A stretch of 64,000 bases of DNA from Candidatus Methanomethylicaceae archaeon (GTDB lineage Archaea; Thermoproteota; Methanomethylicia; Methanomethylicales; Methanomethylicaceae): positions 10,645-74,644 of the forward strand of contig JACTUC010000008.1 in the NCBI GenBank assembly GCA_015660995.1, given 5' to 3'. The notes under the pieces are model-generated. The model saw only the letters and a program-made list of their open reading frames with translations. It ran no database searches and had not been told where the DNA came from. Below, piece by piece: positions 8,288 through 37,667 of the stretch; within the stretch, counting starts at the first letter, position 1, and each line of letters begins with the position of its first letter. Made by a program: the position numbers and the translations under genes.

Positions 8288-8392
8288 GGGCCGGTAGCTC
8301 AGACTGGCAGAGCGCCCGCTTGGCATTGCGGGCATGCAGCCTCCGCACCAAAGTGCGGGAGGCCACGGGTTCAAATCCCGTCCGGTCCACCA
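8288..8392 (+). tRNA. tRNA-Ala (anticodon GGC) with a 28-nt intron between positions 37/38; CCA encoded
   Basis: Acceptor GGGCCGG/CCGGTCC gives the G3:U70 Ala identity pair, with A73. The D-arm is GCTC-AGACTGGCA-GAGC. Anticodon stem CCCGC/GCGGG only pairs after removing 8326-8353. T-arm is ACGGG-TTCAAAT-CCCGT. Confidence 0.75.
8326..8353 (+). other. Putative tRNA-Ala intron (canonical 37/38 position)
   Basis: TTGCGGGCATGCAGCCTCCGCACCAAAG. Removing it restores a 7-nt anticodon loop TTGGCAT. Contains a hairpin that could contribute to a bulge-helix-bulge. Confidence 0.6.
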
Positions 8393-8543: not shown

Positions 8544-10529
8544 ATGCGGCACAAGATCGCAGCATGCCTCATATTCTGCCTTTTGACCATATCTATCATC
8601 GGAAGTACTGTTGCAGCTGCTGATTGGCCCATGTTCCACTATGATTCAAGCCATACGGGCTACACAACCGATGCCGGCCCTCTCACAAATAATGTTCTGT
8701 GGAAATACACCACCGGTGGCACGGTGGAATCCTCTATCGTCATCTCCGGTGGCTATGTTTACGCCCCCTCAGCTGACAATAATGTCTACTGCCTCAACGC
8801 CACGACCGGCCACCAGGTGTGGAACTACACAACCGGTGGTTACGTGTGGGGGCCAGCTATCGCCAACGGCTACGTCTACGTCGGCTCCGACGATCACAAG
8901 GTCTACTGCCTCAGTGCCCAGACCGGCGCCTTGGTGTGGAGCTACTCGACCGGCGGCTACGTGTACACCCCAACCGTCGCCAATGGCTATGTCTATATTG
9001 GTTCAAATGATCGCAATGTTTACTGCCTCAATGCCTCGACTGGCGCCCAGGTGTGGAACTTTACCACTCAAGGTGAAGTGTACGTTCCCTCCGTCTCCGG
9101 CAGCTACGTCTACATAGGCTCTTCAGACAGTAATGTCTACTGCCTCAATGCCAATACGGGTGCCAAGATATGGAGCTATTCGACCGGCAACTATGTATTA
9201 TCAACCCCTGCTGTCTCTGGCAACGGCTACGTCTACGTGGGGGGCTACGATCACAACGTCTACTGCCTCAATGCCTCAACCGGCGCCCAAGTATGGAGTT
9301 ACGCCACAGGCGGTATCATATTCTCCTCCCCAGCCGTCGCTAATAGCTACGTCTACATTGGCTCCGAAGACAACAACGTCTACTGCCTCAATGCCCAAAC
9401 CGGCGCCCAAGTATGGAGCTATTCGACCAGTAGCAAGGTATTATGCTCCCCCGCCGTCTCTGGCAACGGCTACGTCTACGTCGGTTCCGAAGATCACAAG
9501 GTCTACTGCCTCAGTGCCCAGACCGGCACCTTGGTATGGAGCTACACGACCAGCGGTGTAGTGACGTCCGCCCCTGCTCTCTCCGACGGCGTGCTTTACA
9601 TAGGATCCTTCGACATGAATGTATATGCCTTCGGTACCCCCTCTTCGACAAATTCCTCCAATGTTGTAGCGAATGGCTGGGTTCCTTCGCCCACTCCTGC
9701 AGTAGCAGCTATAGTGGTTGCTGTAGCATTGACGGGCGCGGTCTCGTTCCTCTTTTCAATGGTGAGCAACCCTCTGGGCAGTCTCGGGGGTAAAGCAGGT
9801 GAAAAAACGAAGGGCATCCTTCCTGATAACATTAAGTCGTGGCTAGAGGATTTTGTGGAGTCTAGGCATGAAATTAATGTGGAGGCAAAAATTGGGGCTT
9901 CGTATTTGCCTACAGGGCCCGAGATTTTAGCCTATGGTATTGCTATCGTTGCACTGACGCTCGCGTTCTCCTATGCGGAGGTCAATAGCCTCGCGAATAT
10001 ATTTGAAGTTCTCCCTCTTATTTTGGTCACGAGTGTTCTTGTGGTACTGGTCCAGAAGTTCGTCTCGATCGCGCTTATGCGGAAGCTGGGGGTGTGGAGC
10101 GAATACAAGATTTGGCCCCTAGGTCTCGTACTATTTCTTGTAACCACTCTCGCATTCCGGGTTCCTTTTTCATCACCAACCCGTGACGTGGAAGCTTCTC
10201 ACGAGCCTGCTGAACAAGCTCCACCTTCGTCGCTGACCCCTGAGGCGCATTCCTTGTCCAAGCATACTGAACTTTTCGAAGCGATAGTGCCTGCTTCGGA
10301 AATACTAGTAGGAGTACTTTTTGCAGGACTTTTCTTTATCATATTGAAAAGCGGTTTCACCTTGGTGGGCAGTACGGGCTTGGCGATGTGCATCATTGGT
10401 TCCTTCTTTGAATCTCTTCCCATTGAGCCCCTAGACGGCAAAGACATCTACGACCATAGCAAGATGATTTGGGCAGCCATATTCCTAGGAACTCTGATCT
10501 TGTTCGCATTGTGGGTGCTGCTGCTCTAG
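8544..10529 (+). CDS. Secreted PQQ-repeat beta-propeller fused to a polytopic membrane domain resembling an inactive site-2 protease (M50-like)
   Basis: Signal peptide, about 8 PQQ-like blades (repeats of YVY.GS.D..VYCLNA.TG..VW), then 6 or more TM helices. These carry ALMRKLGVWSEYKIWPLG and SLPIEPLDGKDIY, which parallel the S2P HExxH-region and LDG motifs. HExxH is replaced by QKFVS. Confidence 0.75.
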   Translation: MRHKIAACLIFCLLTISIIGSTVAAADWPMFHYDSSHTGYTTDAGPLTNNVLWKYTTGGTVESSIVISGGYVYAPSADNNVYCLNATTGHQVWNYTTGGYVWGPAIANGYVYVGSDDHKVYCLSAQTGALVWSYSTGGYVYTPTVANGYVYIGSNDRNVYCLNASTGAQVWNFTTQGEVYVPSVSGSYVYIGSSDSNVYCLNANTGAKIWSYSTGNYVLSTPAVSGNGYVYVGGYDHNVYCLNASTGAQVWSYATGGIIFSSPAVANSYVYIGSEDNNVYCLNAQTGAQVWSYSTSSKVLCSPAVSGNGYVYVGSEDHKVYCLSAQTGTLVWSYTTSGVVTSAPALSDGVLYIGSFDMNVYAFGTPSSTNSSNVVANGWVPSPTPAVAAIVVAVALTGAVSFLFSMVSNPLGSLGGKAGEKTKGILPDNIKSWLEDFVESRHEINVEAKIGASYLPTGPEILAYGIAIVALTLAFSYAEVNSLANIFEVLPLILVTSVLVVLVQKFVSIALMRKLGVWSEYKIWPLGLVLFLVTTLAFRVPFSSPTRDVEASHEPAEQAPPSSLTPEAHSLSKHTELFEAIVPASEILVGVLFAGLFFIILKSGFTLVGSTGLAMCIIGSFFESLPIEPLDGKDIYDHSKMIWAAIFLGTLILFALWVLLL

Positions 10530-14408: not shown

Positions 14409-14508
14409 GAAAAAACCTGCCTCTATTCTTATTATACTCCTCCATTCTGGTCCTCATTTAATAAAGATTTTCAGGATGGTAACTAGCGGCTACGGCTGAC
14501 TCTTACGG

Positions 14509-17462: not shown

Positions 17463-17557
17463 GCTCCGGTAGTATAGTCCGGTCAAGTATACTGGCCTCT
17501 CGAGCATCAAAGCAGAGAAAGTCAGTGACACGGGTTCGAATCCCGTCCGGAGCACCA
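17463..17557 (+). tRNA. tRNA-Glu (anticodon CUC) with about 17-nt intron at 37/38; CCA encoded
   Basis: Acceptor GCTCCGG/CCGGAGC plus A73, and the characteristic Glu D-arm GTAT-AGTCCGGTCAA-GTAT. Anticodon stem CTGGC/GTCAG closes only after removing 17503-17519, giving loop CTCTCGA. T-arm is ACGGG-TTCGAAT-CCCGT. Confidence 0.7.
17503..17519 (+). other. Putative tRNA-Glu intron
   Basis: AGCATCAAAGCAGAGAA. Its 3' part (AGAG) can pair with the CTCT of the anticodon loop as expected for a BHB. The exact boundary is ambiguous by one A. Confidence 0.55.
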
Positions 17558-25809: not shown

Positions 25810-27030
25810 ATGCAACCTATGGATGGGTATCCTTCGTTGGCGTACGACATAATCGCTCATGAGATGGACAGGCCAACACTCTTTAAGGACGAGTCGAAAC
25901 TCTTCCCGGACCATGTGCCCACGAACCTTGTCCACAGGGAACCCGAACTGAAAGCATTGAGCAGGGTATTCAAGGTGCTGCTGGAGTCCCCGGGCTCCGT
26001 AGCTCAGAAGGTAACGCTCGTGGGCGACGTCGGCGTTGGAAAGACTGCTGTTGCGAAGAGGTTTGGATCCAGCATCGAGTCGCTGGTAAAGGGCAAGGGG
26101 ATCAACCTCCGTTACGTCCACGTCAACTGCTACAAGGACCGCACACTCTTCCTGGTCATAAAGAAGGTTGCACAGCAGATACTCCCGAGCATACCCGACC
26201 GCGGATTCTCGGCCCAGGAGCTCTTCGAGACGCTCTGGAAGATCCTCGAAGACGAGAACATCTACCTGCTACTCGCGCTGGACGAGGCTGACTTCCTTAT
26301 CTCAGCCTCTGGCGAGAAGGACGCGCCCCTCTACTTCCTCTCCCGGGTTGCCGATGAATACCTGAATCGTCCCCAGAGGCTCAGCCTCATCTTGATTACG
26401 AGAAATCTCGAATTCCTCTCGGGTCTGGACAAGAGCGTTCAGAGCAGCCTCCTTCACAACGTGGTGCGCTTCGAGAAGTACACCTCCGAGCAGCTCTTTG
26501 ACATAATCCACGCCAGGGGCATGGATGCTCTCAAGGAGAGCGCCCTTAGCGAGGAGGTACTGGCCATGATCTCGGACATATCCGCGCCACGCGGCGACGC
26601 CAGGTATGCGCTTGAGCTGCTCTGGCGCGCGGGCAAGTACGCCGATGCCGAGGCTGCGGAGAGGATACTTCCCGAGCATGTGAGGAAGGCGCAGCTGGAC
26701 GTCTCACAGTTCCCCATGCACACGGTGCAGGAGCTGCCCCTGCACGAGAGGCTCTTCCTGCTCTCGGTGGCGAAGGTGCTGAAGAGAAACAAATCTGCCT
26801 ATGTAACCATGGGCGAGGTGGAGTCGACCTACCGCGTTCTCTGCGAGAGCAACAGCATAGAGCCTAGGAAGCACACTCAATTCTGGGAGTACCTGCAGAA
26901 CCTGAAGAACCTCGGTATACTATACACCAAGATCTCGGGCGCAGGCTTCAGGGGGAAGACAACGCTGATAGGGCTGCTCAACCTCTCCGTAGAGGCTGTG
27001 GAGCGGGGTCTGAAGGATCTGGAGGGATGA
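25810..27030 (+). CDS. cdc6: Orc1/Cdc6 replication initiator
   Basis: AAA+ Walker A VGDVGVGKTAV, Walker B LLLALDEAD, sensor regions and a C-terminal winged helix. Confidence 0.9.
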   Translation: MQPMDGYPSLAYDIIAHEMDRPTLFKDESKLFPDHVPTNLVHREPELKALSRVFKVLLESPGSVAQKVTLVGDVGVGKTAVAKRFGSSIESLVKGKGINLRYVHVNCYKDRTLFLVIKKVAQQILPSIPDRGFSAQELFETLWKILEDENIYLLLALDEADFLISASGEKDAPLYFLSRVADEYLNRPQRLSLILITRNLEFLSGLDKSVQSSLLHNVVRFEKYTSEQLFDIIHARGMDALKESALSEEVLAMISDISAPRGDARYALELLWRAGKYADAEAAERILPEHVRKAQLDVSQFPMHTVQELPLHERLFLLSVAKVLKRNKSAYVTMGEVESTYRVLCESNSIEPRKHTQFWEYLQNLKNLGILYTKISGAGFRGKTTLIGLLNLSVEAVERGLKDLEG

Positions 27031-27034
27031 AAAG

Positions 27035-27307
27035 ATTTCTGTAGAGGACATATTCTCGTCCAAGGGACGGGTAAAGGTACTGAAGGAGCTTGCCGAGCGT
27101 GGCGAGATGAACATATCTGAGATAACACGGCGCACAAGCTTGAACCACACAACGACCTCTGCGCATCTGAAGAAGCTCTGCGAGCTTGGCATAGTGGAAG
27201 AGAAGAGGTTCGGGCGCATCAGGATATTCAGGTTCATGAAGGAGGACCCGCGAGGATGGGCGATCCAGACCCTCTTCGAGTCCTTCAAAAAGGGGTCGAA
27301 GGCATGA
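27035..27307 (+). CDS. ArsR-like winged-helix transcriptional regulator (start codon uncertain, probably ATT 27035)
   Basis: DIFSSKGRVKVLKELAERGEMNISEITRRTSLNHTTTSAHLKKLCELGIV is an ArsR/HTH_20 pattern. The frame is open from 27014 with no ATG/GTG/TTG before the internal Met at 27107. GGAGG sits at 27021-27025. Confidence 0.5.
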   Translation: MSVEDIFSSKGRVKVLKELAERGEMNISEITRRTSLNHTTTSAHLKKLCELGIVEEKRFGRIRIFRFMKEDPRGWAIQTLFESFKKGSKA

Positions 27308-28321: not shown

Positions 28322-28834
28322 ATGCGAAGTAGAGCCCCCGTGGTTTGCATCGTGGCACCGGGCAGCGGTTACGGGAAGACCGCTCTCATAGACTCATTGC
28401 TGGCGGGCCTAAAACAGCAGGGCATCAAGGCCTGCGTCCTGAAGCATTCAGGCCACGATTTCGAGCCTGACGTTGAAAAGGACACGTGGTTCTTCAGGCA
28501 GGCAGGTGCCATTGGCTCGGCAGTAATAACCGAGGCGGGCCTCGCCTCCTTTTACGTGCCCTGTAGCACCCTCGAGAGCTCCCTCGCCATCCTCGAAGGG
28601 CTCGAGCCAGACATCATCCTCTGCGAGGGCTTCAAGGAGTCGAACCTACCAAAAATACTCTTGCTCAAGGCCGAGGACGAGTTTGGGATAATCCCTTCGC
28701 TCACATCTGTCTTAGCTGTTGTGTATGATAGCGAATACCCTGAATGGGTCAAGGTTCCTGTACTCAAGCAAGCCAAGGAGGTACTGAATTTCCTGCTCGA
28801 TTACCACCGCAGATCTAAGGAGGGGCTGGTCTGA
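28322..28834 (+). CDS. mobB: Molybdopterin-guanine dinucleotide biosynthesis adapter MobB
   Basis: P-loop GSGYGKT plus the LKHSGH motif. Confidence 0.8.
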   Translation: MRSRAPVVCIVAPGSGYGKTALIDSLLAGLKQQGIKACVLKHSGHDFEPDVEKDTWFFRQAGAIGSAVITEAGLASFYVPCSTLESSLAILEGLEPDIILCEGFKESNLPKILLLKAEDEFGIIPSLTSVLAVVYDSEYPEWVKVPVLKQAKEVLNFLLDYHRRSKEGLV

Positions 28835-29742
28835 TCGATCCATACGGCAGGGCAATCAAGGGCATAAGGATCAGCCTCACCCAGAGGTGCAACCTCAACT
28901 GCGTCTATTGCCATCATGAGGGCGAGGCCGCGGTCTCGACGGAGATGACAACGGTCGAGGTACTTCGCACAGTGAAAATTGCTGCTGAGCTGGGTGTTAT
29001 AAGGGTCAAGTATACGGGGGGAGAGCCCCTCCTCAGGAGCGACCTGATCGATATCATCAGGGGAACAACCTCAATGAAGCTGGAGGACGTCGCGCTCACT
29101 ACTAATGGCTCGCTCCTTAAGGCAAGTGCAAAGGGGCTGTCCGAAGCTGGCCTCAGGCGCCTCAATATTTCGCTCCCCAGCATGGCACCGGACGTCTACT
29201 CCACGCTGACCGGGGGGGAACTTGGGGATGCCCTAGACGGCATAAGGGAAGCCAGGAACTTGGGCATGGAGATCAAACTGAACATGGTAATAATGAAGGG
29301 TATTAATGCAGGCGAGGTAGACCGCTTCATGGGGCTTGCGCGGGACTTGGGCGGTAGCCTCCAGCTCATTGAGCTTGAGGACCTCAGCCTTGAACCGGGA
29401 TTTTTCAGCAAGTACCATCTGGACATCTCGGACATCGAGGAAGAGATAGTGCATATGGCCCAGCGGACAGTAAAAAGGGAGGACATGAACCACCGGGCCA
29501 GGTATCTTGTGGACGGTCTGCAGGTGGAGGTTGTTCGGCCCATTAACAACCCGAACTTCTGCAGTAGATGCACCCGCCTGAGGGTCACAAGCGACGGGAA
29601 GCTCAAGCCCTGCCTTATGCGTTCGGACGACCTGATCGACCTGCTGAAGCCGATGAGGTGCGGATCTTCCGATGCTGAGCTGAAAGGGCTCTTCCTAAAG
29701 GCGGTCTCCCTCAGGTCTCCTTACTACCAGCAACGCGGCTGA
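28834..29742 (+). CDS. moaA: GTP 3',8-cyclase MoaA (radical SAM); start codon uncertain (ATC 28834 or CTG 28831)
   Basis: The radical-SAM CNLNCVYC motif lies upstream of the first ATG (28945). The frame is open from 28819 with no ATG/GTG/TTG before the motif. GGAGG sits at 28819-28823. Confidence 0.75.
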   Translation: MDPYGRAIKGIRISLTQRCNLNCVYCHHEGEAAVSTEMTTVEVLRTVKIAAELGVIRVKYTGGEPLLRSDLIDIIRGTTSMKLEDVALTTNGSLLKASAKGLSEAGLRRLNISLPSMAPDVYSTLTGGELGDALDGIREARNLGMEIKLNMVIMKGINAGEVDRFMGLARDLGGSLQLIELEDLSLEPGFFSKYHLDISDIEEEIVHMAQRTVKREDMNHRARYLVDGLQVEVVRPINNPNFCSRCTRLRVTSDGKLKPCLMRSDDLIDLLKPMRCGSSDAELKGLFLKAVSLRSPYYQQRG

Positions 29743-32797: not shown

Positions 32798-33367
32798 ATG
32801 TCTCGCCGGGCTTCGGACGATATCAAGACCTCACAGTTCCTCTACGAGGAGGAACTTGTGGGCGTAGTATTTCAGAAGCCGCTCCTGGCGACCAAAGTGG
32901 GCGCTCTACAGCTCGGCGCTTTCGTTGAAGGCAACGAGGCAAGGATCCCGCTCTGGGCAGCGAAGGCCCTAGAGGCAGAGGGCATAGTCAAGCTGAATCC
33001 CGATCAATCCCAGCAGCTCATAGCCAGCGAACTCTTCAAGCTTTCATGGAAGGAGGAGCGGAACGAGGCGTTGCTCGTGCTGCCACCCAATTTCTACCCG
33101 AAGCTTAGAGAACTCACGAATCAGCTCAACGAGAGCATTAAGCAGAACCCCACCCACACGACCCTGAGCGAGCAGCGGCAGGCTTTCATGAAGGCGAAAG
33201 ACCTTATTAACTGCAGGCTGCAGAAGATTCTCCGCCTTTCGTTTGAGAGGAACCCTTCAAAACCGCTGGTTGAGGCCCTCCAGCCCGAGGAGAAGTCCCT
33301 CTTCAACAACATTAGGTCCGAGATAGACGACTGGCGTGAGAAGATCCTTCTCGAGGAGACGAAGTGA
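32798..33367 (+). CDS. gins23: GINS subunit Gins23 (Psf2/Psf3-like)
   Basis: N-terminal beta (B) domain with IPLWAAKALEAEGIVKL and helical A domain with LPPNFYPKL. Directly upstream of mcm with a 4-nt overlap. Confidence 0.55.
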   Translation: MSRRASDDIKTSQFLYEEELVGVVFQKPLLATKVGALQLGAFVEGNEARIPLWAAKALEAEGIVKLNPDQSQQLIASELFKLSWKEERNEALLVLPPNFYPKLRELTNQLNESIKQNPTHTTLSEQRQAFMKAKDLINCRLQKILRLSFERNPSKPLVEALQPEEKSLFNNIRSEIDDWREKILLEETK

Positions 33368-35445
33368 TAATCATGACAGAAATACTGGCCGAGGTTATGG
33401 ATTATCGAGAGAGGTTTGTTAACCTCCTCAAGTCCTTCCAAGACAAGAAGGGCGCTTTCAAGTATAGGGAAGCGCTGGCAGAGATGGCAACCCAGGGGAA
33501 GGTCTCCCTAGTAATAGACTTCGACGACCTAATCTCATTCGACCCGGACTTGGCATCAGATCTCAAGGACAAGCCCATGGAGATTGTACCCAAGGCCGAC
33601 GCAGCGATCCTCGATGCGATGCGCGTCGAGAACATGCAGTACGCAGCCAAGGTCAAGGGCACTAAGGTTAGGTTCCGCAACCTGGACGAGGTCGTGCCGC
33701 TGCGCTCGCTGAAGTCCCGCCACATGGGCAGGCTCCTGATGGTGGAAGGCATAATCACCCGGTCATCAAGCATAAAGCAGCTCCTGAGGACCGGCGTCTT
33801 CCAGTGCCCCCGGTGCGGCGAGAAGATGGTTGTGGAGCAGGGAGGCACGGCCCTCATAATGCCGCCCAGGTGCGCCAACGAAGACTGCCAAAGAACGGGC
33901 TTCTTCAAGCTGATCCCGGAGGAGTCGACCTTCTCCGACTGGCAGATGATCTCGCTCCAGGAGAAGCCTGAGGAGCTCCCACCTGGCCAGCTCCCGAGGT
34001 CGGTCGAGGCGATTCTCCAGGGCGACCTCGTGGACATCTCACGTCCCGGTGACAGGATATCGCTGGTGGGTACGCTCCAAGCCAAGCAGGAGTTCACGTC
34101 GAAAGGGTTCAGGCTTGCGACCTTCTCCACAGGCATTGAGGCGAACAACCTGGAAGTCTCCGAGAAGGGCGCCACGGAGGTCCTGGTAACGCCCGAGGAT
34201 GAAAAAATCATAAAGAAGCTCGCCAAAGACCCCGCCTTGTACGAGAAGATATTTGGCTCCATCGCTCCCTCCATTTACGGCTACGAGGAGATCAAGGAAG
34301 CAATAGCTTACCAGCTGGTTGGTGGCGTCCCCAAGACCATGCCCGACGGCATCAGGATAAGGGGTGATATCAATATTTTGCTGGTGGGAGATCCTGGGAC
34401 TGCGAAGAGCCAGATGCTTCAATACATCGCCCGAATTGCCCCCCGTGGGGTTTACACCTCGGGCAAGGGCTCGACTGCTGCAGGCCTGACTGCGACGGTG
34501 ATAAGGGATAAGAACACCAACGAGTTCTTCCTTGAAGCTGGTGCCTTAGTATTAGCAGATAAGGGCATAGCATGCATCGACGAGATCGACAAAATGCGAC
34601 CGGAGGACCGTTCCGCCATACACGAGGCCATGGAGCAGCAAACCATAAGCATAGCCAAAGCTGGCATTGTGGTTCAGCTCAACGCCAGGAGCAGCATCCT
34701 CGCTGCAGCCAACCCTGCCTTCGGCAGGTATGTCCCTCAGAGGACCATTGCTGAGAACATCCAGGAGCTGCCGGTCACAATACTCTCAAGGTTCGACCTG
34801 ATCTTCACCCTGCTCGACAGGCCCGAAGAGGGTCGCGACAGGAGCATGACCGAGCACATCCTCAAGCTCCACCAGGGCATAAGGATCGAGAAGGAATCAA
34901 TGATAGAGCGAGAGTTCTTCAAAAAATATCTCTTCTACATAAGGAAGAACGCGAACCCGAGGCTCTCCGAAGGGTCGATTAAGAAGATAGAGGAGTTCTT
35001 CCTCGCGATGAGGGCCCAGGGCGAGGGGGCAGACTCACCAGTTCCAATAACCATGAGGCAGCTGGAGGCGATCATAAGGCTCTCCGAGGCTCGGGCCAAG
35101 CTTGCCCTGTCAAAGGAGGTTACGGAAGAGGATGTTGCCCATGTGACCCGGCTCATCACACACTTCCTGACCCAGGTCGGTACCGACCATGCTACGGGCA
35201 AGCTTGATATAGACACCCTCATGGTGGGCAGGCCAAAGTCCACCAGCGACAAAATGGCTGGATTGTTCGATCTCCTCATGACGATTCAGAAGGACAACGA
35301 AGGAGGGCCAATTAAGAAGGAAGTGTTCCTCGAGCGTGCCGAGCTGGAGCACTACGGCAGGGAGTTCGTTGAGAAGAACCTGCAGCAGTGGCTCAATGAC
35401 GGCGTGATCTACGAGCCCAAGGCTGGCTTCATCAAGAAGACCTGA
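33364..35445 (+). CDS. mcm: MCM replicative helicase
   Basis: C4 zinc finger (CPRCGEK...CANEDC), Walker A GDPGTAKSQ, Walker B CIDEIDKM and the arginine finger. 693 aa, so no intein. Confidence 0.95.
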   Translation: MIIMTEILAEVMDYRERFVNLLKSFQDKKGAFKYREALAEMATQGKVSLVIDFDDLISFDPDLASDLKDKPMEIVPKADAAILDAMRVENMQYAAKVKGTKVRFRNLDEVVPLRSLKSRHMGRLLMVEGIITRSSSIKQLLRTGVFQCPRCGEKMVVEQGGTALIMPPRCANEDCQRTGFFKLIPEESTFSDWQMISLQEKPEELPPGQLPRSVEAILQGDLVDISRPGDRISLVGTLQAKQEFTSKGFRLATFSTGIEANNLEVSEKGATEVLVTPEDEKIIKKLAKDPALYEKIFGSIAPSIYGYEEIKEAIAYQLVGGVPKTMPDGIRIRGDINILLVGDPGTAKSQMLQYIARIAPRGVYTSGKGSTAAGLTATVIRDKNTNEFFLEAGALVLADKGIACIDEIDKMRPEDRSAIHEAMEQQTISIAKAGIVVQLNARSSILAAANPAFGRYVPQRTIAENIQELPVTILSRFDLIFTLLDRPEEGRDRSMTEHILKLHQGIRIEKESMIEREFFKKYLFYIRKNANPRLSEGSIKKIEEFFLAMRAQGEGADSPVPITMRQLEAIIRLSEARAKLALSKEVTEEDVAHVTRLITHFLTQVGTDHATGKLDIDTLMVGRPKSTSDKMAGLFDLLMTIQKDNEGGPIKKEVFLERAELEHYGREFVEKNLQQWLNDGVIYEPKAGFIKKT

Positions 35446-35459
35446 TCGGAGGGCCCAGT

Positions 35460-37667
35460 ATTAGGGTAGACGACCTTCCCATCCGCGACGAAGCCAAGAG
35501 GCTCTACCGCGAGATGGGCATTACCGATCTTTACCCTCCCCAGGAAGAAGCTGTGAAGTCAGGGGTTCTGGAAGGCAAGAACCTTGTCCTGGCCATCCCC
35601 ACAGCCTCTGGAAAGACGATGGTGGCCGAGCTATGCGCCCTCAAGCACGTGATGGAGCGCCGGGGGAAGGCCCTTTACCTTGTTCCACTCAAGGCCCTTG
35701 CCTCAGAGAAGTACGAAGATTTCAAGAAGTTCAACAAAATAGGGCTGAGGGTGATACTCTCCACGGGCGACTTTGACACCCTGGATCCGACGCTCGGAAG
35801 GTATGACATAATTATCGCAACAAATGAGAAGGCGGACTCGATCTTCCGGCACAAGCCTGCTTGGATCAACAGCCTTACACTGCTAGTCGTTGACGAGATT
35901 CATCTCTTGGGCGATGGGTCTAGGGGTCCTACGCTGGAAGCTGTCATGACTAGGTTCCGCCTCCTCAATCCTAAAGCGCAGATACTGGCCCTCAGCGCGA
36001 CAATCAGCAACGCCGACGAGATGGCTGGCTGGCTGGGTGCCCAGCTTGTCACGAGCGATTGGCGACCAGTTCCCCTCATGGAGGGTGTCTATTTCCACGA
36101 ATCTGTAATGTTCAGTGACGGCCAGAACAAGAAGGTGGAGGGCGTCGAGACTGACCCCGTGGCACGCTTGGCAGTGGACGTGATAAAGTCTGGAGGCCAG
36201 ATGCTCGTCTTCGCTGCGAGCAGGCTCTCTTCCACCTCCCTGGCCAAGCGGATGGAAACGCCCGTAAGAAACCTGCTCAAGGGGAGCGAGGAGAAGAAGC
36301 TGCTTGAGCTCTCGTCCAGGATACTAAAGATGGGGGAGCGCACCCGCATATCCAACAAGCTTGCCAAGGCTGTCTCCAATGGTGTCGCCTTCCACCACGC
36401 GGGCCTGACCTACGAACAGAGGAAAGCGGTCGAGGACGCTTTCCGATCGTTTTTGGTCAAGGTAATATGCGCCACGCCTACTTTGGCCGCAGGCGTCAAC
36501 CTACCCGCGAGGCGGGTACTCATCTACGATTACAGGCGCTACGAGGCAGGCCTCGGCCAATCGAACATACCCGTGCTGGAGGAGAAGCAGATGGCTGGCA
36601 GGGCTGGCAGACCCAAGTACGACAAGGAGGGCCAGGCAATAATCCTTGCAAGGAGCGAAGAGGAACGCGACTTTCTGCTGGAGCAGTACGTGCTCGCCAA
36701 GCCCGAGAAGGTCTGGTCGAAGCTGGGCAACGCCTCCTCGTTGAGGTCCCACATACTGGCAGCAATCTCCATGGGGCTGGCATGCTCCCAGGAGGGTGTC
36801 TTCGACTTCCTTGAGAGATCCTTCTGCTCCTACCAGTACGGTATAAACTCATTCAAGGGCGCGATCCTCGAATCGCTGGATATGCTTACGAGCGAAGGCA
36901 TGGTGAAGTCTGAGGGGAAAGATCTGCTCCCGACCCCGCTTGGCAGGAGAGTGGCAGAGCTGTACATAGACCCGAAGTCCGCCGTTATCCTGAAGAACGG
37001 GCTCAAGATCCGCCGCTCTGGTGTGCCTGCCATAGGCTACCTCACGCTGATCTGCCACACCCCTGACATGCCCAAGCTCTACATCCGCAGAAAGGAGCTC
37101 GAGGAGCTGAAGGCGTTCCTTGAGTCCAACTGCGACCTCTTCCTTTACGACCTTCCCCAGGATGAAGGCTTTGACTATGAGATGCTCCTCACGGAAGTGA
37201 AGACGTCCCTCCTCATCAAGGACTGGATCGACGAGCTGCCTGAGGACGCGATAGTGGAGAGGTTCGACGTAGGATCCGGGGACATTTACGCCTACGTCGA
37301 GTCGGCAAAGTGGCTGGTCCACTCCGCCCACGAGCTTGCGAAGCTGATGGGGTACCCAGAGTCTATGAAGCCGCTCTTGGACTTGAACGTGAGGATCGAG
37401 AACGGCGTGAAGGAGGAGCTCCTGCAGCTTATATCGCTGAAGGGCGTAGGCAGGGTTAGGGCCAGAGCCCTCTTCTCGGCAGGCTACAAGGGCATCGATG
37501 ACCTGAAGAGAGCTTCCCCAACGGAACTTGGCAGGATCCCAACATTGGGGCCGGAGACCATACGATCGATTAAGGAGCAGGTGGGTGGTAGCGTCACCAA
37601 GGAGGAGTGGTCTATGGTTAAGTCCAGATCCGGCACCAAGCAGTCGTCCATGGACGACTACGGATAA
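35460..37667 (+). CDS. hel308: Hel308/Hjm Ski2-like DNA helicase (start probably ATT 35460)
   Basis: AIPTASGKT, DEIH and the C-terminal HhH domain. Residues upstream of the first ATG (RVDDLPIRDEAKRLYRE) align with the conserved Hel308 N-terminus. GGAGG sits at 35448-35452. Confidence 0.9.
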   Translation: MRVDDLPIRDEAKRLYREMGITDLYPPQEEAVKSGVLEGKNLVLAIPTASGKTMVAELCALKHVMERRGKALYLVPLKALASEKYEDFKKFNKIGLRVILSTGDFDTLDPTLGRYDIIIATNEKADSIFRHKPAWINSLTLLVVDEIHLLGDGSRGPTLEAVMTRFRLLNPKAQILALSATISNADEMAGWLGAQLVTSDWRPVPLMEGVYFHESVMFSDGQNKKVEGVETDPVARLAVDVIKSGGQMLVFAASRLSSTSLAKRMETPVRNLLKGSEEKKLLELSSRILKMGERTRISNKLAKAVSNGVAFHHAGLTYEQRKAVEDAFRSFLVKVICATPTLAAGVNLPARRVLIYDYRRYEAGLGQSNIPVLEEKQMAGRAGRPKYDKEGQAIILARSEEERDFLLEQYVLAKPEKVWSKLGNASSLRSHILAAISMGLACSQEGVFDFLERSFCSYQYGINSFKGAILESLDMLTSEGMVKSEGKDLLPTPLGRRVAELYIDPKSAVILKNGLKIRRSGVPAIGYLTLICHTPDMPKLYIRRKELEELKAFLESNCDLFLYDLPQDEGFDYEMLLTEVKTSLLIKDWIDELPEDAIVERFDVGSGDIYAYVESAKWLVHSAHELAKLMGYPESMKPLLDLNVRIENGVKEELLQLISLKGVGRVRARALFSAGYKGIDDLKRASPTELGRIPTLGPETIRSIKEQVGGSVTKEEWSMVKSRSGTKQSSMDDYG

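Follow-up and report, generated by a model that had tools for sequence, protein, structure and literature searches.

The 64-kb window examined here, 64,000 nucleotides of a contig from a Candidatus Methanomethylicaceae archaeon whose numbering is used throughout, carries on its forward strand an MCM gene followed by hel308 (Hjm), and our subject is the codon at which translation of hel308 begins. The MCM gene (33364..35445, +; 693 aa, GTG start) was taken from the list of open reading frames; the called gene carries the Pfam domains MCM_N, MCM_OB, MCM and MCM_lid, and it ends with TGA 35443-35445. A spacer of 14 nt separates this stop from an ATT at 35460..35462 (+), the proposed initiation codon. 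Within the spacer lies a Shine-Dalgarno (SD) sequence, GGAGGG (35448..35453, +), whose GGAGG (35448-35452) stands 7 nt from the ATT; canonical starts of the window cluster at 4-11 nt. From 35400 onwards the hel308 frame is free of stops, and its first canonical start codon of any kind (ATG, GTG or TTG) is ATG 35514..35516 (+), which is in frame with the ATT. Its translation runs ...LIGGPS-IRVDDLPIRDEAKRLYRE-MGITDLYPPQ, and two further in-frame near-cognate codons precede the ATT: CTG 35442, which overlaps the MCM stop, and ATC 35445. An earlier reading made from the sequence only had drawn attention to the GGAGG, the ATT and the absence of a canonical codon before 35514, and its coordinates proved accurate. 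The full coding sequence of hel308 would thus occupy 35460..37667 (+; 735 codons plus stop), the first canonical ATG being read as internal Met19 and not as the start.

In this genome, chance alone often places a near-cognate codon behind a GGAGG and ahead of the first canonical start: the window has about 22 such matches, about 17 of them in frames that are not genes. The motif was therefore dropped as stand-alone evidence, and the case for hel308 rests on homology and on codon-level conservation. When the ATT-started translation was compared with PDB sequences using phmmer, P. furiosus Hjm (2zj2_A) was matched with E = 1.8e-168, query residues 1-713 aligning to residues 1-704 of the chain and residue 1, encoded by the ATT, falling on Met1 of Hjm (MRVDELRVDERIKSTLKERGIESFYPPQ against iRVDDLPIRDEAKRLYREMGITDLYPPQ). 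The other PDB matches were 2va8, 2p6r and 9b15. Pfam places DEAD at residues 26-186, Helicase_C at 299-385, Helicase_dom4_arc at 525-649 (1-125/125) and HHH_5 at 656-707; the translation shows the Q motif, Walker A (PTASGKT) and the DEIH box, and ratchet domain 4 and the helix-hairpin-helix domain 5 are both covered. The solved proteins of P. furiosus (2zj2), S. solfataricus (2va8) and A. fulgidus (2p6r) are homologous to the hel308 product over the full length (E = 1e-148 to 1e-168) and share its five-domain architecture, together with an N-terminal strand and a helix that precede the Q motif. By homology, the gene product is assigned to Hel308/Hjm, a Ski2-like superfamily 2 DNA helicase, and 3'-5' activity on forked substrates is predicted.

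The residues that precede ATG 35514 had been taken by the sequence-only reading for the conserved N-terminal helix of Hel308, and both parts of that description hold. In an AlphaFold2 model that drew on 51 homologues (mean predicted local distance difference test score, pLDDT, 88.5; predicted template modelling score 0.83), residues 1-20 have a pLDDT of 92 and residues 10-18 form a helix. Among ten Methanomethylicia sequences, all 17 third positions of codons 2-18 are variable, against 9 second positions; the codon for Leu6 alternates between CTN and TTR, and that for Ile8 drifts between species among ATC, ATT and ATA. By this pattern of substitution, codons 2-18 evolve as coding sequence. Together with the alignment to Met1 of Hjm and the predicted fold, it identifies the 18 residues 5' of ATG 35514 as the genuine N-terminus of Hel308.

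Adjacency of MCM and hel308 is kept throughout Methanomethylicia in the relatives' loci that were compared (labelled L### here, with P#### for database proteins), four close ones having been found by a single-protein scan of genome contigs and the others through exact-protein look-ups. An SD followed by ATT, 12-15 nt past the MCM stop, was found in 15 other Methanomethylicia loci (L007, L008, L009, L021, L053, L056, L062, L133-L139 and L141), with protein identities to the window of 58-96 % where computed and locus GC contents of 27-56 %. The SD takes the form GGAGG, GGTGA or AGGTGG and always occupies the same place. In the Methanosuratincola loci L133 and L134 the frame opens only two codons upstream of this position (GAC CTT ATT), and in L007, L008 and L021 the open frame begins eight codons before it, none of them CTG, ATG, GTG or TTG. 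Outside Methanomethylicia, the same position is held by a canonical codon in the loci examined, Odinarchaeia excepted: in Bathyarchaeia, Thermoprotei and most other archaeal loci it is ATG, GTG or TTG, 23-27 codons before the Q motif.

Retention of the ATT exceeds what the encoded amino acid would explain. Eight species spanning 27-56 % GC were aligned codon by codon as a control, and the start codon was ATT in 8/8, while a single codon was kept in 0/14 fully conserved internal Ile columns and in 1/271 conserved degenerate columns. This difference points to selection on the start codon at the nucleotide level. In the GC-rich members, ATT is the rarest Ile codon (9-15 % of Ile codons). By this comparison, the hel308 start codon is under nucleotide-level selection and is held one mutation from ATG. 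The earlier proposal of ATT 35460 as the best-supported start is upheld by the alignment with outgroup starts, by the 15 loci and by the eight-species conservation; the orthologue alignments, which might have favoured ATG 35514, placed the start at the ATT instead.

These comparisons lead us to a model in which GGAGGG 35448-35453 pairs with the 3' end of 16S rRNA and positions the 30S subunit so that the AUU, 7 nt downstream, enters the P site. The initiator Met-tRNA would decode AUU with a mismatch at the third position, and the protein would begin Met-Arg-Val-Asp-Asp-Leu. Ribosomes leaving the MCM stop 14 nt upstream would probably supply this weak start by termination-reinitiation, to which de novo SD-led initiation may add. 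Across most of Methanomethylicia, one mutation from AUG, the AUU would then be a selected weak start that most likely serves to limit Hel308 output and to link it to MCM synthesis, a form of selection suggested by its class-wide retention.

Two further genes of the window appear to begin at near-cognate codons. The first encodes a winged-helix regulator of the ArsR type (27035..27307, +; 90 aa) that starts with ATT, 4 nt past the cdc6 stop at 27028-27030; its SD, GGAGG 27021..27025 (+), is contained in the 3'-terminal part of cdc6 and precedes ATT 27035 by 9 nt. Positions 2-46/47 of Pfam HTH_5 fall on residues 10-55, the first canonical ATG (27107) being residue 25, and the ATT is aligned to a TTG, ATG or GTG start in about 30 relative loci; L053 also has ATT. 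The ratio of nonsynonymous to synonymous substitution rates (dN/dS) against L053 is 0.030. In two outgroup loci with an arsR-like gene, L077 and L091, GGAGG, 7 nt and CTG occur at the position where others have ATG or GTG, with no canonical alternative, and sporadic CUG starts thus occur outside Methanomethylicia as well.

The second is moaA, for GTP 3',8-cyclase (28831..29742, +; 303 aa), whose CTG forms a CTGA overlap of -4 nt with the mobB stop. An in-frame TAA (28816-28818) stands four codons before CTG 28831, and the GGAGG (28819..28823, +) directly past it is 7 nt upstream of the CTG. TIGR02668, the archaeal MoaA family, matches with positions 1-303/303 on residues 5-304 of the extended translation; its position 1 falls on residue 5, which sets the family start at CTG 28831. 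Initiation at the first ATG, 28945, would delete the radical-SAM CxxxCxxC motif. The CTG is aligned codon for codon to the TTG, ATG or GTG starts of relatives, GGAGG+7+CTG is also present in L053 (86 % identity), and dN/dS against L053 is 0.121. The NCBI annotation already has the 303-aa MoaA from CTG (MGA2573333.1). The low dN/dS between the window and L053, both of which have non-canonical starts, indicates that arsR and moaA are functional and under purifying selection. The count of hel308 as a third instance in the window, made in the sequence-only reading, is therefore correct, in that both genes lack a canonical start and align with their relatives' starts. In L133 (2592-4001), L134 (2424-3842) and L138 (2525-3940), MobB and MoaA are called as one protein of 469-472 aa; this Methanosuratincola-type MobB-MoaA may be a true fusion or an upstream-extended call, the codon at the moaA start there being CTG or CTA.

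The three genes are built alike at their beginning, each with a strong SD and a start codon beside an upstream stop, and are probably coupled to the gene before them. The SD spacing is 7 nt for hel308, 9 nt for arsR and 7 nt for moaA, each with an SD match of 5-6 nt, and the distance from the upstream same-strand stop is -4 nt for mobB-moaA, +4 nt for cdc6-arsR and +14 nt for MCM-hel308. Termination-reinitiation in Haloferax has an efficiency of 40-60 % at 13-14 nt and is gone at about 22 nt (Huber et al. 2023, PMC10666635). In a post hoc comparison, near-cognate starts account for 3/11 stop-proximal starts of the window and 0/51 others (Fisher p = 0.004). Each of the three could thus be an SD-anchored start at a weak codon, partly fed by ribosomes terminating upstream, with Met-tRNAi tolerating one mismatch. 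As all three stand beside upstream stops, reinitiation and the stringency of start-codon choice may be linked.

Taken by itself, initiation of hel308 at AUU 35460 is highly probable on the sequence evidence, and the whole reading, an SD-led AUU start whose weak codon is selected and which is probably coupled to MCM, appears to us a strong one. Several points weigh against it. AUU initiation is here a matter of sequence comparison and predicted structure, and low, MCM-coupled expression as the purpose of the codon is purely our inference. The product of the ATT frequencies over the eight species, 3.5e-7, overstates their independence since the species are related, and the control with internal codons is the sounder argument. 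The Fisher test, besides being post hoc, draws on a gene list that holds a few doubtful open reading frames. Two loci of the P0016 clade, L061 and L142, have TTG or ATG at the hel308 start position, so that AUU is not obligatory. As cited in PMC6237735 and PMC4705826, aIF1 of S. solfataricus discriminates against AUU in vitro, and a low efficiency of the hel308 start is to be expected from such rejection. Lastly, in the sub-clade of the window an in-frame CTG or TTG over the MCM stop could yield a protein six residues longer.

This last point is the basis of one alternative, initiation by termination-reinitiation at CTG 35442..35444 (+), six codons 5' of the ATT in a CTGA overlap with the MCM stop, which would give M-IGGPS-IRVDD... 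and leave the GGAGG merely coding for Gly-Gly. The geometry matches that of moaA in the window, an overlap of -4 nt is the most efficient coupling arrangement (PMC10666635), and in L139 and L141 the codon at this position is TTG and is used as the called start. We nevertheless consider it improbable. The first base of the CTG is the synonymous third base of the last Thr codon of MCM and drifts between C and T (ACC TGA versus ACT TGA), a drift that accounts for the TTG called as the hel308 start by some pipelines in L139 and L141. The counterpart of the CTG is missing in most of the class, as in L007, L008, L021, L133, L134, L136, L137 and L138, where only the ATT is present; the ATT and its SD stay invariant even where an upstream TTG exists, which would be unexpected had the upstream codon taken over; and there is no SD upstream of CTG 35442. 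The CTG could be the start of a minor isoform.

Initiation at ATG 35514, with the upstream 54 nt an untranslated leader that merely resembles the N-terminus of Hel308, is very improbable. The ATG is the sole canonical codon in the frame, it is used in all public gene calls and pipelines, and Met19 precedes the Q motif and every helicase motif. At this position, however, only the window genome and L053 have ATG, the codon elsewhere being ACG, ACA, TCG, TGC, TTA, CAA or CTT, and ATG 35514 has no properly spaced SD. The first canonical codon of relatives varies widely, and in L134, L138 and P0015/31/33/34 it lies past Walker A, so that starting there would produce a dead helicase. The coding pattern of codons 2-18, the alignment with the N-terminus of solved Hel308s and the confident fold model likewise contradict this start.

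The remaining two alternatives have a negligible probability. The first, that the non-canonical starts stem from errors of sequencing or assembly or from incipient decay of hel308, arsR and moaA into pseudogenes, would draw on the fact that loss of the start codon is a common first step of gene decay, and two of the three genes share one operon. The window matches contig JBEKUN010000002.1 of GCA_049514975.1, a metagenome-assembled Methanomethylicaceae genome. The sequence of 35430-35520 is the same in six independent assemblies (NCBI, ENA, two from JGI and two from Logan), which rules out assembly error; ATT is present in the 15 other loci, all three open reading frames are intact, and dN/dS against L053 (dS 0.3-0.6) is 0.037 for hel308 and, with the values given above for arsR and moaA, like that of neighbouring genes (0.03-0.21). 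The arsR ATT and moaA CTG, being common to L053, are older than the split between it and the window. An MCM-Hel308 fusion through frameshifting or stop readthrough, for which hel308 would need no start codon of its own, fits the adjacency of the two genes on the same strand and a hel308 frame that, in the window, runs on past the MCM stop uninterrupted from 35400. Against this, the frames of the two genes differ, the MCM stop is TGA, TAA or TAG depending on the species, the spacer holds a conserved SD, and in L136 and L138 the hel308 frame opens directly after the MCM stop. In L133 and L134 a TGA in the hel308 frame follows the MCM stop (MCM ends at 9927, and the hel308 frame is open from 9935), which excludes a fusion.

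An AUU start of hel308 has parallels in known systems. Translation table 11 permits rare ATT, ATC, ATA and CTG starts, as in E. coli pcnB, and these share with the present cases a codon with a single mismatch, the initiator tRNA and a strong SD. Such starts are usually sporadic and confined to one species, whereas most of a class has kept the AUU of hel308 and three near-cognate starts occur within 64 kb here. Closer is bacterial infC, for initiation factor IF3, which likewise has a clade-wide AUU start one mutation from AUG, preceded by an SD and inefficiently initiated (PMC4705826). Regulation of infC is autogenous because IF3 rejects AUU; the product of hel308 is a helicase and not aIF1, so that this feedback is not expected, and the factors concerned are archaeal (aIF1/aIF2), infC being bacterial. 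The gene may therefore act like a weak-start device but not as an autoregulatory loop of the infC type. The archaeal cases of termination-reinitiation (PMC10666635) resemble the three junctions in that the distances of -4, +4 and +14 nt lie in the coupling range and the SD is in or just past the upstream gene; those cases use AUG, GUG or UUG, and initiation at AUU or CUG in this setting is what we propose. The literature searched had nothing specific on start codons of hel308 or of Methanosuratincola: it describes no AUU start in hel308, in Methanomethylicia or, as a native conserved codon, in archaea, and on toxicity of Hel308 dosage it offered nothing usable. The AUU of hel308 is a feature of a known kind, in an unexpected class-wide archaeal case with clear consequences for annotation.

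The selective value of archaeal non-AUG starts has been described as an open question in a review by Asano (PMC4705826). A weak start held one mutation from AUG across most of an archaeal class is evidence for selected inefficient initiation, and the MCM-hel308 junction offers a concrete, conserved test case. Strains of Methanosuratincola have recently been cultured.

The consequences for annotation are more immediate. Every public call of the Hel308 of the window is shortened, to 717 instead of 735 aa, and the databases hold no entry with an ATT-started Hel308 or an ATT-started 90-aa ArsR-like protein. Most database calls of Methanomethylicia Hel308 are shortened at the N-terminus, some starting past Walker A, and those of outgroups are complete; related genomes lose up to about 75 residues, Walker A included. 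Common gene callers mostly weigh only ATG, GTG and TTG, and this is how the N-termini of Hel308 are lost. A remedy would be to anchor start calls in homology and to admit ATT and CTG. In L133 (10001) and L136 (10001), the GenBank proteins P0026 and P0039 are called from an internal ATA (MTDLYPPQ and MKELYPPQ, respectively) that sits 20-22 codons 3' of the conserved ATT and looks like the wrong codon.

It is a more doubtful proposition that Methanomethylicia, and perhaps other archaea, regularly employ AUU and CUG under selection at operon junctions coupled by termination, where relaxed-stringency reinitiation at a weak codon would set the ratio of downstream to upstream protein. If this is true, hel308 would be under a class-wide control that links helicase dosage to MCM synthesis and responds to aIF1 activity, an archaeal counterpart of start-codon-based regulation, and in these lineages the annotated N-terminus of several per cent of genes would be wrong. 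When extended translations of about 30 other genes of the window were scanned against NCBIfam and Pfam, no further certain near-cognate start was found and the canonical starts fitted. For arsR and moaA together, near-cognate starts number 2/~55 in outgroups and 4/~28 in Methanomethylicia, the latter four representing two events in one lineage. Within the 64 kb and the syntenic loci, the counts do not amount to a lineage-wide excess of near-cognate starts. A table of ortholog starts at extrapolated positions gave false flags (a 'CTG' for MoaC, for instance), which were discarded on inspection by eye, and ORF 17610-17317(-), which has no canonical start, was treated as spurious because it overlaps a tRNA-Arg.

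The extension to other archaea draws on the two outgroup arsR genes with CUG and on hel308 of Odinarchaeia, in which 3/3 loci (L013 near 10001, L049 near 10001 and L038 near 6314) have no canonical codon with which the conserved N-terminus could begin. The sequences are GGTGGcttaga ATA ATA ATA GAC in L013, GGTGGcttagg ATA TTA ATA GAT in L049 and, with a long spacing, GGTGGccta GAA TTA TTA ATA GAC in L038; the first TTG lies 8-18 codons before the Q motif, compared with 23-27 for the start elsewhere. These genes may have an independent AUA start.

Three genes of the window, in each of which a near-cognate codon is the better spaced from the SD, were ambiguous and left uncounted. A DUF72 gene has CTG 46530 and TTG 46548, and a membrane protein gene at 14453(-) has ATA 14432/14435 and GTG 14408. 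An RND/MMPL transporter gene offers TTG 49323 (1 nt past GGAGG), CTG 49329 (7 nt) and GTG 49332 (10 nt). Among relatives, cdc6 of L053, the closest of them, has ATT at the position of ATG 25810 of the window and ATA at that of the second ATG, the proteins being 95 % identical; no canonical codon occurs for about 27 codons, and since the gene looks promoter-proximal a near-cognate start would be more surprising there. The start of rfcS (31885 in the window), 7 nt past AAGGAGGT, is TTG in the window, L053, L009 and L061 and CTG in L135, L054, L055 and L056, with an ATG seven codons downstream (MWTEKYRP) as a possible canonical alternative.

The window also holds two intron-containing tRNA genes. 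That at 8288-8389, detected by Rfam and missed by ARAGORN, has by eye the anticodon GGC (Ala) and a non-canonical intron; that at 17463-17557 is a tRNA-Arg(TCG) according to ARAGORN. Neither is an initiator tRNA, and both were set aside as uninformative about decoding. Inteins (Intein_splicing, LAGLIDADG) interrupt MCM (1225-1575 aa) and Hel308 (1071-1111 aa) of some relatives, the carriers being L141 (1277-6004), L142 (2283-5960) and the proteins P0011, P0012, P0025, P0027, P0028 and P0035, while both copies in the window are intein-free.

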